A stretch of DNA of 64,000 bases from Escherichia coli. GTDB taxonomy: Bacteria > Pseudomonadota > Gammaproteobacteria > Enterobacterales > Enterobacteriaceae. The translations under genes and the position numbers were made by a program. The stretch is from NCBI RefSeq assembly GCF_965641715.1, contig NZ_OZ282453.1; one strand, 5' to 3'. The notes under the pieces are model-generated. The model had not been told where the DNA came from and searched no databases. It saw only the letters and a program-made list of their open reading frames with translations. The stretch's first letter is position 1; every line of letters starts with the position of its first letter. Of this stretch, positions 39,608 to 46,051 are shown in pieces.

Positions 39608-40603
39608 ATGAAAAAGAAAAGACCCGTACTTCAGGATGTGGCTGACCGTGTAGGCGTGACCAAAATGACGGTCAGCCGTTTTTTACGCAACCCGGAGCAG
39701 GTTTCCGTCGCTCTACGCGGCAAGATTGCCGCGGCTCTTGATGAACTGGGCTATATTCCCAATCGTGCGCCCGATATCCTCTCTAACGCCACCAGCCGGG
39801 CGATTGGCGTCCTGTTACCTTCTCTCACCAACCAGGTTTTCGCGGAAGTATTACGCGGAATCGAAAGCGTCACCGACGCGCACGGTTATCAGACCATGCT
39901 GGCGCACTACGGTTATAAACCGGAAATGGAGCAAGAACGTCTCGAATCCATGCTCTCATGGAATATCGACGGACTGATCCTCACCGAACGTACCCACACG
40001 CCGCGCACCTTAAAGATGATTGAAGTGGCGGGGATTCCCGTGGTGGAACTCATGGACAGCCAGTCGCCGTGCCTCGATATCGCCGTCGGTTTTGATAACT
40101 TTGAAGCGGCACGCCAGATGACCACCGCCATTATTGCTCGCGGGCATCGCCACATTGCCTATCTCGGCGCACGTCTCGACGAACGTACTATCATCAAACA
40201 GAAGGGATACGAACAGGCGATGCTGGATGCAGGCCTGGTGCCATATAGCGTGATGGTTGAGCAATCTTCTTCTTACTCTTCCGGTATTGAACTGATTCGC
40301 CAGGCGCGGCGGGAATATCCGCAGCTGGATGGCGTGTTCTGTACTAATGATGATCTGGCGGTCGGCGCGGCGTTTGAATGTCAGCGTCTGGGGTTAAAAG
40401 TTCCTGACGATATGGCGATTGCCGGTTTCCACGGTCATGACATTGGTCAGGTGATGGAGCCACGACTTGCGAGCGTGCTGACGCCGCGTGAGCGGATGGG
40501 CAGTATTGGCGCTGAACGCCTGCTGGCGCGTATTCGTGGCGAATCTGTGACACCGAAAATGTTAGATTTAGGTTTCACCTTGTCACCGGGCGGATCTATT
40601 TAA
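39608..40603 (+). CDS. gntR: LacI-family gluconate repressor
   Basis: 331 aa; N-terminal HTH. Confidence 0.95.
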   Translation: MKKKRPVLQDVADRVGVTKMTVSRFLRNPEQVSVALRGKIAAALDELGYIPNRAPDILSNATSRAIGVLLPSLTNQVFAEVLRGIESVTDAHGYQTMLAHYGYKPEMEQERLESMLSWNIDGLILTERTHTPRTLKMIEVAGIPVVELMDSQSPCLDIAVGFDNFEAARQMTTAIIARGHRHIAYLGARLDERTIIKQKGYEQAMLDAGLVPYSVMVEQSSSYSSGIELIRQARREYPQLDGVFCTNDDLAVGAAFECQRLGLKVPDDMAIAGFHGHDIGQVMEPRLASVLTPRERMGSIGAERLLARIRGESVTPKMLDLGFTLSPGGSI

Positions 40604-40741
40604 GCCCACAAATTTGAAGTAGCTCACACTTATACACTTAAGGCACGGATGGATATTGCTTCTGATAATGTCCGGCTGGACAATGTTACCGATAACAGTT
40701 ACCCGTAACATTTTTAATTCTTGTATTGTGGGGGCACCACT

Positions 40742-41269
40742 TTGAGCACGACTAACCATGATCACCACGTTTACGTCTTGATGGGCGTATCGGGCAGCGG
40801 CAAATCTGCGGTCGCAAGTGAAGTGGCGCATCAACTTCATGCCGCGTTTCTTGATGGCGATTTCCTCCATCCACGGCGCAATATCGAAAAAATGGCGTCT
40901 GGCGAACCGCTGAATGACGACGATCGCAAACCGTGGTTGCAGGCGCTGAACGACGCTGCGTTTGCTATGCAGCGCACTAATAAAGTGTCGCTGATCGTCT
41001 GTTCTGCATTGAAAAAACACTATCGCGACTTGCTGCGTGAAGGTAATCCGAATCTCTCTTTCATCTACCTGAAAGGCGATTTTGATGTGATTGAAAGCCG
41101 CCTGAAAGCGCGCAAAGGCCATTTCTTTAAAACCCAAATGTTGGTGACGCAGTTTGAAACGCTGCAGGAGCCGGGTGCGGACGAAACCGATGTACTGGTG
41201 GTGGATATCGATCAACCGCTGGAAGGTGTTGTGGCAAGCACCATTGAGGTTATTAAAAAAGGCAAATAA
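40742..41269 (+). CDS. gntK: Gluconokinase
   Basis: ORF 40721..41269; start placed at in-frame TTG to match the 175-aa K-12 protein (start codon uncertain); Walker A GVSGSGKS. Confidence 0.85.
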   Translation: MSTTNHDHHVYVLMGVSGSGKSAVASEVAHQLHAAFLDGDFLHPRRNIEKMASGEPLNDDDRKPWLQALNDAAFAMQRTNKVSLIVCSALKKHYRDLLREGNPNLSFIYLKGDFDVIESRLKARKGHFFKTQMLVTQFETLQEPGADETDVLVVDIDQPLEGVVASTIEVIKKGK

Positions 41270-41272
41270 GTA

Positions 41273-42613
41273 GTGACTACATTAACGCTTGTTTTAACAG
41301 CAGTAGGGTCTGTTTTACTGCTGCTGTTTTTAGTCATGAAGGCGCGTATGCACGCTTTCCTGGCTTTGATGGTGGTGTCCATGGGGGCTGGCCTTTTTTC
41401 CGGTATGCCGCTCGATAAAATCGCAGCGACGATGGAAAAAGGGATGGGAGGCACCCTCGGCTTCCTGGCGGTGGTTGTCGCCCTGGGAGCTATGTTTGGC
41501 AAGATCTTACATGAAACCGGCGCAGTCGATCAGATTGCCGTCAAAATGCTCAAATCCTTCGGTCACAGCCGCGCGCATTATGCCATCGGCCTTGCGGGGC
41601 TGGTCTGTGCGCTACCGCTGTTCTTTGAAGTGGCGATTGTTCTGCTGATTAGCGTTGCTTTCTCAATGGCGCGCCACACCGGTACGAACCTGGTGAAGCT
41701 GGTAATCCCATTATTCGCAGGCGTGGCGGCAGCGGCGGCGTTCCTGGTGCCAGGGCCAGCGCCAATGCTGCTGGCATCGCAGATGAACGCCGATTTTGGC
41801 TGGATGATCCTGATTGGCCTGTGTGCGGCAATTCCGGGAATGATTATTGCCGGGCCGCTGTGGGGTAACTTCATCAGCCGTTACGTTGAGCTGCATATTC
41901 CTGATGACATCAGCGAGCCGCATCTCGGCGAAGGCAAAATGCCGTCCTTCGGATTCAGCCTGTCGCTGATCCTGCTGCCGCTGGTGCTGGTGGGGCTGAA
42001 AACCATTGCCGCGCGTTTTGTGCCAGAAGGCTCTACCGCTTACGAATGGTTCGAGTTTATTGGTCATCCGTTTACCGCGATTCTGGTTGCTTGTCTGGTA
42101 GCGATTTATGGCCTGGCAATGCGTCAGGGCATGCCAAAAGACAAAGTGATGGAGATTTGCGGTCACGCGCTGCAACCGGCGGGGATCATTCTGCTGGTGA
42201 TTGGTGCGGGCGGCGTGTTCAAACAGGTGCTGGTTGACTCTGGCGTAGGTCCGGCACTGGGCGAAGCGTTAACCGGCATGGGCCTGCCGATTGCTATCAC
42301 CTGCTTCGTGCTGGCCGCTGCAGTGCGCATCATTCAGGGTTCTGCAACCGTTGCCTGTTTAACGGCGGTGGGACTGGTGATGCCGGTTATTGAACAACTG
42401 AACTACTCCGGTGCGCAAATGGCGGCGCTGTCGATTTGTATCGCCGGTGGTTCGATTGTTGTCAGCCACGTTAACGACGCTGGTTTCTGGTTGTTCGGTA
42501 AATTTACCGGCGCGACCGAAGCCGAAACGCTGAAAACCTGGACCATGATGGAAACCATCCTCGGCACTGTCGGTGCCATCGTTGGGATGATTGCGTTCCA
42601 GCTGTTGAGTTAA
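41273..42613 (+). CDS. gntU: Low-affinity gluconate transporter
   Basis: 446 aa GntP-family permease. Confidence 0.95.
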   Translation: MTTLTLVLTAVGSVLLLLFLVMKARMHAFLALMVVSMGAGLFSGMPLDKIAATMEKGMGGTLGFLAVVVALGAMFGKILHETGAVDQIAVKMLKSFGHSRAHYAIGLAGLVCALPLFFEVAIVLLISVAFSMARHTGTNLVKLVIPLFAGVAAAAAFLVPGPAPMLLASQMNADFGWMILIGLCAAIPGMIIAGPLWGNFISRYVELHIPDDISEPHLGEGKMPSFGFSLSLILLPLVLVGLKTIAARFVPEGSTAYEWFEFIGHPFTAILVACLVAIYGLAMRQGMPKDKVMEICGHALQPAGIILLVIGAGGVFKQVLVDSGVGPALGEALTGMGLPIAITCFVLAAAVRIIQGSATVACLTAVGLVMPVIEQLNYSGAQMAALSICIAGGSIVVSHVNDAGFWLFGKFTGATEAETLKTWTMMETILGTVGAIVGMIAFQLLS

Positions 42614-42752: not shown

Positions 42753-44849
42753 ATGGAAAAGCACGCAGCTGAATTGCTTTTACAGCGGATGTTAGGAAAT
42801 ACCACCGCTACTTTCAGGGAAGGGCAATGGGAAGCCATAGACGCGGTGGTGAACCAACGGCGAAAACTGCTGGTTGTCCAACGCACTGGCTGGGGGAAAA
42901 GTGCTGTGTACTTCATCGCCAGTAAAATCTTCCGCGATCGCGGCGCTGGCCCGACAATTATCATCTCTCCTTTGCTTGCCCTGATGCGTAACCAGGTTGC
43001 CGCCGCTGAACGGTTAGGTATTACGGCTGAAACGTTGAATTCTACAAACAGAGAAGAATGGCAGCGCATTAGCGATAAGTTGCTGCAAGGTGAGGTCGAT
43101 TGCTTGCTGGTTTCCCCGGAACGTTTGGCAAACCAGGACTTTATCGAAACGGTTTTATATCCTATAGCCGATCGTATTGGCTTGCTTGTGGTCGACGAGG
43201 CGCACTGCATCTCTGATTGGGGCCACGATTTTCGCCCGGATTACCGACGTATATTAGATATTTTGCGCCAACTACCTGCGAATACCCCTGTTCTGGGTAC
43301 AACCGCGACAGCGAATAACCGTGTCGTTGAGGATATCCGTCAGCAATTGGGTGACATTGTGATTCAGCGTGGAACGCTGGCTCGCGAAAGTTTGGCGCTT
43401 GATGCCTTAGTCTTAGGTGAACAGTCATCCCGTCTGGCATGGTTAGCAACGGTTATCCCTCAGTTTTCCAAATCGGGAATTGTTTATACCCTGACTACTC
43501 GCGATGCCGAACTTGTCGCCGAGTGGTTAAGGAAAAATGGTATCAGTGCATTTGCTTACTACAGCGGCGTGACTTGCGAAGGCGCGGAAGATTCTAATAC
43601 TGCCAGGGAATATCTGGAGCAGGCGTTGCTGGCAAATAAAATTAAAGTGCTGGTTGCGACAACGGCGCTGGGAATGGGCTTTGACAAACCGGATTTGGGG
43701 TTTGTTATTCATTACCAGATGCCAGGTTCGATAGTTGGTTACTACCAACAGGTGGGGCGTGCCGGTCGCGGTATCGATTCTGCTGTTGGCATACTGCTTT
43801 GCGGCAGTGAAGACCGTGCTATTCATAAATTCTTCCGTGAAAGCGCCTTTCCTGCGGAGGCGCAAATTCATGAAATACTCAACGTACTTAGCGTGAATGA
43901 CGGTCTTACCTTACGAGGCATTGAACAACGGACGAATCTCCGTTATGGGCAAATAGAAAAAGCACTGAAATTATTGGTAGCTGAAAATCCATCGCCTGTG
44001 GTGTATACCGAGAAATTATGGCGCAGAACAATTGTCAGTTTTTCTCCTGACCATGAACGAATTAACCATTTGATGAATCAGAGAAAAAGTGAGCTGGCAG
44101 ACGTTGAAAGCTATATCACGACCAAGGAGTGCAAAATGCAATTTCTGCGCCGCGCACTCGATGAGCCAGGTGCCGAACATTGTGGTAAATGTAGCAGTTG
44201 TCTTCAGCATCCGTTGTTGTCGCCCGACATTGATAGCGGCTTACTCCATGCGGCAAACTTATTTATTAAACACGCTGACCTGCCATTAAATCTCAATAAA
44301 CAGGTGGCAGCTGGGGCTTTTACGCAATACGGATTTAAAGGGAACTTGCCTGCGAGTTTACAAGGATCTACGGGGCGAATCCTTTCTCGTTGGGGAGATT
44401 CCGGGTGGGGAAAGCAGGTAGCACAGGAGAAAAAAACGGGGCGATTCAGTGATGAACTGGTGGAGGCATGTGCGGAAATGGTTCGCCAACGCTGGAATCC
44501 GCATCCTGAACCAACCTGGGTATGCTGCGTTCCTTCATTAAAGCACCTCGACCTGGTTCCTGATTTTGCCCGGCGACTGGCGGCGAAACTTGGCTTACCT
44601 TTTATTGATGCCATTGAAAAAGTCGTGGACAATCCACCGCAGAAAATGCAGCAAAACCGTTTCCACCAGTGTCAAAATCTCGACGGGGCGTTTGTGATTA
44701 CCCCTCCTTTGATGCCTGGTCCGGCGTTGCTGGTTGACGATATCGTGGATTCTGCATGGACGCTGACAGTTCTGACAGCACTGTTACGCCAGGCAGGTTG
44801 CCCGACGGTTTATCCTCTTGCCCTTGCTTCTACCTCGGTAAAAAATTGA
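42753..44849 (+). CDS. RecQ-family helicase fused to C-terminal phosphoribosyltransferase-like domain (698 aa); candidate toxin/effector
   Basis: RecQ motifs GWGKS, VVDEAHCISDWGHDFRPDY, GTTATA, QQVGRAGRG; C-terminal PRTase-type motif LLVDDIVDSAWTLT. Confidence 0.8.
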   Translation: MEKHAAELLLQRMLGNTTATFREGQWEAIDAVVNQRRKLLVVQRTGWGKSAVYFIASKIFRDRGAGPTIIISPLLALMRNQVAAAERLGITAETLNSTNREEWQRISDKLLQGEVDCLLVSPERLANQDFIETVLYPIADRIGLLVVDEAHCISDWGHDFRPDYRRILDILRQLPANTPVLGTTATANNRVVEDIRQQLGDIVIQRGTLARESLALDALVLGEQSSRLAWLATVIPQFSKSGIVYTLTTRDAELVAEWLRKNGISAFAYYSGVTCEGAEDSNTAREYLEQALLANKIKVLVATTALGMGFDKPDLGFVIHYQMPGSIVGYYQQVGRAGRGIDSAVGILLCGSEDRAIHKFFRESAFPAEAQIHEILNVLSVNDGLTLRGIEQRTNLRYGQIEKALKLLVAENPSPVVYTEKLWRRTIVSFSPDHERINHLMNQRKSELADVESYITTKECKMQFLRRALDEPGAEHCGKCSSCLQHPLLSPDIDSGLLHAANLFIKHADLPLNLNKQVAAGAFTQYGFKGNLPASLQGSTGRILSRWGDSGWGKQVAQEKKTGRFSDELVEACAEMVRQRWNPHPEPTWVCCVPSLKHLDLVPDFARRLAAKLGLPFIDAIEKVVDNPPQKMQQNRFHQCQNLDGAFVITPPLMPGPALLVDDIVDSAWTLTVLTALLRQAGCPTVYPLALASTSVKN

Positions 44850-46051
44850 TGAATCTTTCAGCCAATGCACAAGCAACTCTCCTGCTAACCAGCGATTTTT
44901 CTCGCGCGGCGGCGAGTGAGTATAAACCTCTTAGTAATAGTGAATGGGGGAAGTTTGCATTATGGCTGAAGCACCAACGTATCAGTCCCGCCGAGCTTCT
45001 GGTGCCGCAACCGCAAGAGAAACTTACAGGCTGGAGCGATCCGCGTATTTCTCAGGAGCGTATTCTTGGCTTGCTGGCGCGTGGTCATAGTCTGGCGTTG
45101 GCGGTAGATAAGTGGCAACGCGCCGGTTTATGGATCTTAACCCGCGGAGATGCTGATTATCCCGTTCGCTTGAAAAACCGATTGCGAACGGATGCACCTC
45201 CCGTTTTATTTGGCTGCGGGAATAAAGCATTACTGCAAGCGGAAGGTATGGCGATTGTTGGCTCGCGAGATGCTCCGACTGACGATTTGCGCTATACCCA
45301 ACAACTGGCCGCGAAACTGGCCCAACAGGGGATTTGCGTTATCTCTGGTGGTGCGCGAGGTATTGATGAATGTGCAATGGCGTCGGCACTGGAGGCCGGG
45401 GGAACTGCCGTTGGCGTATTAGCTGATAGCTTGTTAAAAACGAGTACGTTAGTGAAATGGCGTGAAGGGCTTATAGCAGGCAACCTGGTGTTGATTTCGC
45501 CGTTTTACCCAGAGGTACGTTTCACCGTCGGCAATGCGATGGCGCGAAATAAATATATTTATTGCCTTGCTGAAAGCGCAATGGTTGTACGTGCGGGAAT
45601 GACCGGTGGAACGATAACCGGGGCGATGGAGGCATTAAAACATCAGTGGCTGCCTGTGCAGGTTAAACCAAATCAGGATATGCAATCAGCCAATTCACGA
45701 TTAGTAGAAAATGGGGCGTCATGGAGTGCTGAACAGGCTGAGAATGTGACGATCAGACTGCCAGACGTTCCTGGGCTGATGTATGACAGAGCACTCCGTA
45801 ACGCTCAACCAGAACTGTTTTCGCTGCATGAAGATGACGCAAATTACGCAGTAATGCCCGCGTATACGCCTGTCGATTTTTATCAACTCTTTGTGGCGGA
45901 ACTGGCGATCCTTGCAAAGGAATCGATAAGTATTGAAAGGCTGGCGTCTTGTACTGGTTTAACCATCGAACAAATTAGTGTGTGGCTGAACCGCGCAGAA
46001 GAAGAGGGAAGGGTTATCCGATTGGGCGAAGGTCATTATCAGTTCAGGTAA
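44849..46051 (+). CDS. DprA/Smf-like (SLOG Rossmann) protein with C-terminal winged helix (400 aa); candidate antitoxin/partner
   Basis: ORF 44756..46051; ATG at 44849 overlaps upstream stop (TGATG); DprA-like GSRD and ISGGARGID motifs. Confidence 0.75.
   Translation: MNLSANAQATLLLTSDFSRAAASEYKPLSNSEWGKFALWLKHQRISPAELLVPQPQEKLTGWSDPRISQERILGLLARGHSLALAVDKWQRAGLWILTRGDADYPVRLKNRLRTDAPPVLFGCGNKALLQAEGMAIVGSRDAPTDDLRYTQQLAAKLAQQGICVISGGARGIDECAMASALEAGGTAVGVLADSLLKTSTLVKWREGLIAGNLVLISPFYPEVRFTVGNAMARNKYIYCLAESAMVVRAGMTGGTITGAMEALKHQWLPVQVKPNQDMQSANSRLVENGASWSAEQAENVTIRLPDVPGLMYDRALRNAQPELFSLHEDDANYAVMPAYTPVDFYQLFVAELAILAKESISIERLASCTGLTIEQISVWLNRAEEEGRVIRLGEGHYQFR

Follow-up and report, generated by a model that had tools for sequence, protein, structure and literature searches.

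The gntR-gntK-gntU locus

The stretch of DNA analysed here, called the window, comprises 64,000 nucleotides of an Escherichia coli genome (NCBI RefSeq assembly GCF_965641715.1, contig NZ_OZ282453.1). It carries gntK, coding for the thermoresistant gluconokinase, between gntR and gntU. The features of the locus are:

39608-40603, plus strand: gntR, LacI-type gluconate repressor (331-aa ORF; gntR stands at the equivalent place in RefSeq genomes and in K-12)
40613-40628 (centre 40620.5), unstranded: CRP-like site TTTGAAGTAGCTCACA, one mismatch to TGTGA-N6-TCACA
40683-40698, unstranded: GntR-operator-like palindrome ATGTTACCGATAACAG, one mismatch to ATGTTA-N4-TAACAT
40696-40711, unstranded: GntR-operator-like palindrome CAGTTACCCGTAACAT, overlapping the first, two mismatches to ATGTTA-N4-TAACAT
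40715-40717, plus strand: in-frame TAA, upstream end of the gntK frame (stop at -27)
40721-40723, plus strand: upstream in-frame TTG, very probably a spurious start candidate, which opens the 182-aa ORF of the mechanical ORF list
40730-40734, plus strand: Shine-Dalgarno (SD) sequence GGGGG, 7 nt before TTG 40742 and within the supposed N-terminal extension (Gly-Gly codons)
40742-40744, plus strand: TTG assigned as gntK initiation codon (conserved start; CDS start in RefSeq and K-12, position 1 of NF008583, Met1 of 1KNQ)
40742-41269, plus strand: gntK CDS, 175 codons and TAA, thermoresistant gluconokinase
41273-42613, plus strand: gntU, low-affinity gluconate transporter, GTG start, same length as K-12 b4476

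The gene order gntR-gntK-gntU agrees with the RefSeq and K-12 annotations, and 5424 of the 5426 complete E. coli genomes contain the gntK locus. In three RefSeq genomes and in K-12 MG1655 (b3437), the gntK CDS is 528 nt long and begins at the equivalent of 40742. The gene is the same as K-12 gntK of the GntI system (b3437, NP_417894.2; UniProt GNTK_ECOLI; PDB 1KNQ), with the same context and boundaries. GntK of the window is identical to the 1KNQ chain at 174 of 175 residues (E = 4e-115), and the conservative substitution I10V is its sole difference from the K-12 protein. The NCBIfam model NF008583 (gluconokinase, PRK11545 equivalog) scored 372.4 bits against a curated cutoff of 265. Pfam SKI and AAA_33 were also above threshold, confirming a P-loop kinase fold (shikimate-kinase-like, NMP-kinase type), with the Walker A P-loop GVSGSGKS at residues 15-22 of the 175-aa protein. 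Given its near identity to the crystallised enzyme, this GntK would be expected to phosphorylate D-gluconate to 6-phosphogluconate with ATP.

The GTG of gntU (41273) begins 3 nt past the gntK TAA (window 41267-41275). In many other genera, this GTG overlaps the gntK stop (TAGTGA). The two genes, both with non-ATG starts, are probably translationally coupled.

Downstream of gntU the window differs from K-12, where yhgN follows directly: gntU and yhgN are separated by a two-gene module at 42753-46051, a place where K-12 and strain UTME-3 have nothing. It encodes a 698-aa RecQ-like helicase and a DprA-like protein, named 'RecQ family helicase' and 'DNA-processing protein DprA' in RefSeq. Their matches among the PADLOC models are PsyrT (E = 0, 1066 bits) and PsyrA (E = 1.5e-202), which together form an already described toxin-antitoxin/defence pair. 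Of the 5426 complete E. coli genomes, 1642 cover at least 80% of an 8-kb query spanning the module. A second start-site ambiguity concerns the DprA/PsyrA-like CDS, which RefSeq begins at ATG 44756, overlapping the helicase gene by 94 nt (window 44756-44851). The PsyrA profile begins at residue 32, which corresponds to the in-frame ATG 44849-44851; this ATG overlaps the helicase stop (TGATG), a junction typical of translational coupling. To judge from the profile and the junction, the shorter PsyrA-like form from ATG 44849 may be the real one.

The spacer between gntR and gntK holds both the operator-like palindromes and the CRP-like site, as in the GntI operon context. The pattern ATGTTA-N4-TAACAT, which following the gnt literature we take to be the GntR operator consensus, retrieved both palindromes, which a generic inverted-repeat finder had missed because of their mismatches. 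They lie in the best-conserved noncoding stretch, the block from -59 to -32, among the best 80 of about 340 Enterobacteriaceae loci described below. The window as a whole shows no enrichment of CRP-like matches. RegulonDB v8 (PMC3531196) lists -69.5 as the position of the CRP site that activates gntKp. Combined with the centre of the CRP-like site, this would put the start of transcription at about 40690, which falls within the operator block. No plus-strand sigma-70 match was obtained in the promoter/terminator scan of 40400-41000; gntKp is CRP-dependent, with poor hexamers. A transcription start near 40690 would be upstream of both TTG codons, so that transcription would not discriminate between them and the SD sequence does.

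Two in-frame TTG codons and their ribosome-binding potential

From the in-frame stop on, the window reads TAA (40715), TTC, TTG (40721), TAT, TGT, GGG, GGC, ACC, ACT, TTG (40742), AGC, ACG, ACT, AAC, CAT and GAT. The upstream candidate thus sits two codons past the stop. The first-pass annotation had presented the start of gntK as a choice between an ATG and an in-frame TTG, on the view that the 182-aa ORF starts with ATG and adds seven residues, MYCGGTT, to the conserved N-terminus. Bases 40721-40723 are however TTG, so that both candidates are TTG. Since an initiator is written as Met by convention, the 'M' of MYCGGTT is no proof of an ATG, and the puzzle of a strong ATG competing with a weak TTG does not exist. 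Two other parts of this description are borne out by the sequence: from 40721, seven codons (xYCGGTT) do precede the STTNHD start, and the codon at the conserved Met, 40742-40744, which aligns with Met1 of GntK in PDB 1KNQ, is indeed TTG.

The presence of an upstream in-frame candidate is in itself unremarkable. Under uniform codon use, the chance of at least one in-frame ATG, GTG or TTG in eight codons is 1-(58/61)^8, about 33%.

The spacing of potential ribosome-binding sites, a check already proposed in the first-pass annotation, was then determined for each candidate. GGGGG lies 7 nt before TTG 40742, and nothing comparable precedes 40721. The duplex with the anti-SD sequence at the 16S rRNA 3' end was -8.4 kcal/mol for TTG 40742, a value reached by 1.45% of 2000 random window positions. 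It was +0.6 kcal/mol for TTG 40721, +0.6 kcal/mol for another in-frame TTG at 40778 and +1.2 kcal/mol for the internal ATG 40781. Folding of the leader and start region (the extent of which depends on the proposed transcription start) gave no more structure than shuffled sequences (z = +1.1), and no structure hiding or exposing one of the TTG starts was seen in it. The SD sequence and the start should therefore be accessible.

The curated NF008583 profile and the 1KNQ chain draw the same boundary: both begin at the residue encoded by TTG 40742. Profile positions 1-174 of 177 match residues 8-181 of the 182-aa ORF, that is residues 1-174 of the product from TTG 40742, and the 1KNQ chain (175 aa) spans residues 8-182 of that ORF. 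As the 1KNQ construct followed the annotation, the structure demonstrates folding of the 175-aa form rather than the native N-terminus, and is not independent evidence. In the literature searched, nothing relevant was found on the native N-terminus of GntK or on initiation-site profiling of gntK, and neither of the two N-terminomics supplement sets searched includes GntK. The protein was reportedly purified by Izu et al. in 1996, and its N-terminus may have been sequenced in that work.

The start region across Enterobacteriaceae

Alignment of gntK 5' regions across strains, also proposed in the first-pass annotation, was carried out at two depths. Within E. coli, the other aligned strains, K-12 included, are identical to the window over the stretch that runs from the upstream TTG to the start codon and contains the SD sequence. 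An E. coli-only alignment is too conserved to discriminate between starts, and the scan was therefore extended to 80 loci of other species. With one genome per species, these are the best 80 of about 340 orthologous loci detected, all from Enterobacteriaceae (Escherichia, Salmonella, Citrobacter, Klebsiella, Raoultella, Enterobacter, Kosakonia, Kluyvera, Leclercia, Lelliottia and others). Counts out of 81 below refer to these best 80 of about 340 loci plus the window. Because the 80 loci are phylogenetically related, with protein identities of at least 91%, locus counts do not represent independent events.

The other species place the start at the position of 40742. Among the best 80 of about 340 loci, 78 have TTG here and two have ATG (79 and two with the window); the ATG starts are those of Yokenella regensburgei and Trabulsiella odontotermitis. 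In these two genera the base at -1 is changed as well, CT-TTG becoming CA-ATG by an adjacent double substitution (loci L043 and L062, at 1499-1503). A further observation concerns the C at -2 (window 40740), which is invariant in all 80 distinct aligned sequences and more conserved than the flanks of the SD sequence.

The ribosome-binding site is conserved together with the start. Every one of the 81 sequences has a purine-rich core (GGGGG, GAGGG, GGGAG or GAGGA) at a distance of 4-8 nt from the start, the G at -10 is invariant, and the mean anti-SD duplex at this position is -8.1 kcal/mol over the same best 80 of about 340 loci and the window. An in-frame TTG at -21, equivalent to 40721, occurs in 15 of the 81, including all Escherichia. 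In each of these 15, an SD sequence serves position 0 and none serves -21.

The region upstream of the start does not evolve as coding sequence. In the alignment of the best 80 of about 340 loci with the window, the seven upstream codons yield 38 distinct peptide sequences, of which two contain stops, and they lack codon periodicity. Between -27 and -14, 23-70% of the aligned sequences are gapped; from the TTG onward there is no gap. Mean column entropies at the three codon positions are 0.10, 0.05 and 0.70 downstream of the TTG, versus 1.44, 1.24 and 1.16 upstream of it. Third-position periodicity thus begins, and freedom to accept indels ends, exactly at 40742.

These comparisons also bracket the start. 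In 36 of the 81 sequences, no in-frame ATG, GTG or TTG lies between the preceding stop and the start. In 20 of the 81, an in-frame stop is present at -21 or -24, the closest being at -21, and GntK residues 2-14 are conserved as protein across the same alignment (best 80 of about 340 loci plus the window). Together, the upstream stops and the conserved residues confine the start to the interval from -21 to +3, where the TTG or ATG at position 0 is the sole shared start codon.

The first-pass annotation had left two possibilities side by side, that gntK uses TTG or that this allele has an N-terminal extension, and had named a ribosome-binding site conserved for the upstream codon and conservation of MYCGGTT as signs of the latter. 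Neither sign was found: the energy at 40721 remains at +0.6 kcal/mol, and the peptide varies as described, with stops and indels. An extension peculiar to this allele is contradicted by the shared 5' sequence of the other aligned E. coli, the lack of a ribosome-binding site and the variability of the peptide. Use of TTG is upheld by the SD sequence, conservation, stop bracketing and the profile boundary, and with both signs of the longer form absent, we consider the choice of TTG 40742 as settled. We are thus highly confident that gntK is translated from TTG 40742-40744 into a 175-aa gluconokinase and that the seven upstream codons are leader. The 3' end of 16S rRNA would pair with the G-run 40730-40734, seven nt upstream of the start, and so position the 30S subunit, and initiator tRNA would decode UUG as fMet to begin fMet-Ser-Thr-Thr-Asn-His-Asp. 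The 21 nt from the upstream TTG (40721) to the start would then be noncoding 5' leader, the Gly-Gly 'codons' being the SD element and the 182-aa ORF presumably a longest-ORF artefact. This start is already known, being that of the reference annotation (RefSeq, K-12); it is ordinary and calls for no new mechanism.

Other starts and the conserved weak UUG

Among other readings, dual initiation fares best, although we judge it very improbable. Most GntK would come from TTG 40742, and a minor 182-aa proteoform from 40721 would be made in Escherichia and in some Citrobacter and Kosakonia lineages. The 15 of 81 sequences with an in-frame TTG at -21 (best 80 of about 340 loci plus the window), the unstructured leader and the weak SD-independent initiation measurable at near-cognate codons in E. 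coli (bioRxiv 10.1101/063800) speak for it. With transcription starting near 40690, the upstream TTG would be on the mRNA, so that rare initiation there is physically possible. A weak codon lacking an SD sequence, 21 nt before a strong SD-led start, should however add very little. Moreover, the seven upstream codons carry no sign of selection, and the TTG at -21 has been lost in closely related genera with no compensating change.

That TTG 40721 is the only real start, yielding a 182-aa GntK with the MYCGGTT extension and the N-terminus (M)YCGGTTLSTTNHD, deserves next to no credence. This codon opens the longest ORF, is probably on the transcript if the start near 40690 holds, and is the one annotated by some GenBank submitters for O157:H7 and Shigella dysenteriae strains. 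Yet it has no SD sequence (+0.6 kcal/mol) and in most genera is either missing or not in frame. Any upstream start is lacking in 36 of 81 sequences, and a stop stands at -21 or -24 in 20 of 81 (best 80 of about 340 loci plus the window). The extension peptide is not conserved, tolerates indels and has no codon periodicity, and both NF008583 and the 1KNQ structure begin at residue 8 of the 182-aa ORF. Initiation at 40721 only would also leave the strong, conserved SD sequence 40730-40734 with no role.

Equally far-fetched is a start at the internal ATG 40781 (Met14), giving a 163-aa protein MGVSGSGKS... devoid of STTNHDHHVYVL: this ATG is the first in frame, is invariant in 81 of 81 sequences (best 80 of about 340 loci plus the window) and underlies a 163-aa form deposited for E. 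albertii TW07627, but it has no SD sequence (mean over sequences +1.24 kcal/mol), and the residues encoded ahead of it (2-13) vary at third codon positions, stay conserved as protein and are covered by NF008583. A protein truncated in this way would also lack the beta-strand that leads into the P-loop in kinases of this fold.

All three N-termini (182, 175 and 163 aa) are still present in public protein databases. By exact look-up, the 182-aa MYCGGTT form was found on 25 contigs with the K-12-type Ile allele, including E. coli O157:H7 EC4115, TW14588 and EC869, and on three contigs with the Val allele of the window, including Shigella dysenteriae 1617 and WRSd3. The 175-aa forms are each on at least 1000 contigs. 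The E. albertii TW07627 entry, EDS93250.1, is named 'shikimate kinase', starts at the Met14 codon (40781-40783) and lacks the conserved residues 1-13. The 182- and 163-aa forms are longest-ORF or first-ATG calls of older pipelines, which have been normalised in RefSeq. In longest-ORF over-extension by automated annotation, a near-cognate codon soon after a stop is chosen and the SD sequence is absorbed into 'coding' sequence. gntK is a textbook instance of this, with no difference, already corrected by RefSeq/PGAP, and a clean case of an SD sequence misread as Gly-Gly codons. The value of this result is mainly one of annotation hygiene: independent comparative criteria uphold the 175-aa RefSeq/K-12 model, and TTG 40742 is the codon to use for cloning, modelling or quantifying GntK.

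AUG, GUG and UUG start 83, 14 and 3% of E. coli genes, and GUG and UUG initiate at 10-100% of the AUG level (Hecht et al., bioRxiv 10.1101/063800). The general evolutionary trend of start codons favours AUG, and sub-optimal starts tend to be compensated by a stronger SD sequence (Belinky et al., PMC5622118). Like other UUG-initiated genes of E. coli, gntK pairs a weak near-cognate start with a strong SD sequence, which fits this compensation pattern. Against the AUG trend, it retains UUG in 78 of 80 species-level loci (best 80 of about 340). Of the 81 sequences (the same best 80 plus the window), 79 retain the T of the start TTG. At 48 four-fold degenerate sites of this alignment, the mean major-allele frequency is 0.67, and one site is as conserved as the start T. 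The start TTG is thus more conserved than 47 of the 48, ranking about second of 49 among sequences that are related to each other. This modest evidence, drawn from sequence comparison, suggests that the weak TTG is maintained by selection and that it may keep GntK translation modest.

A more specific proposal can be put forward tentatively, and we regard it as somewhat less probable than not. The UUG would be a selected setting, held by purifying selection across Enterobacteriaceae and paired with the strong SD sequence, that caps GntK or fixes the GntK:GntU ratio from the gntKU transcript. That Escherichia also makes a trace of the 182-aa proteoform beside it would be a weaker addition. If the UUG is such a setting, cells switched to AUG would suffer on gluconate, for instance from a surge of 6-phosphogluconate or KDPG. 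The unusually conserved weak start of gntK is a modest example of its kind and could serve to study expression tuning in the gluconate pathway, at the entry to Entner-Doudoroff metabolism.
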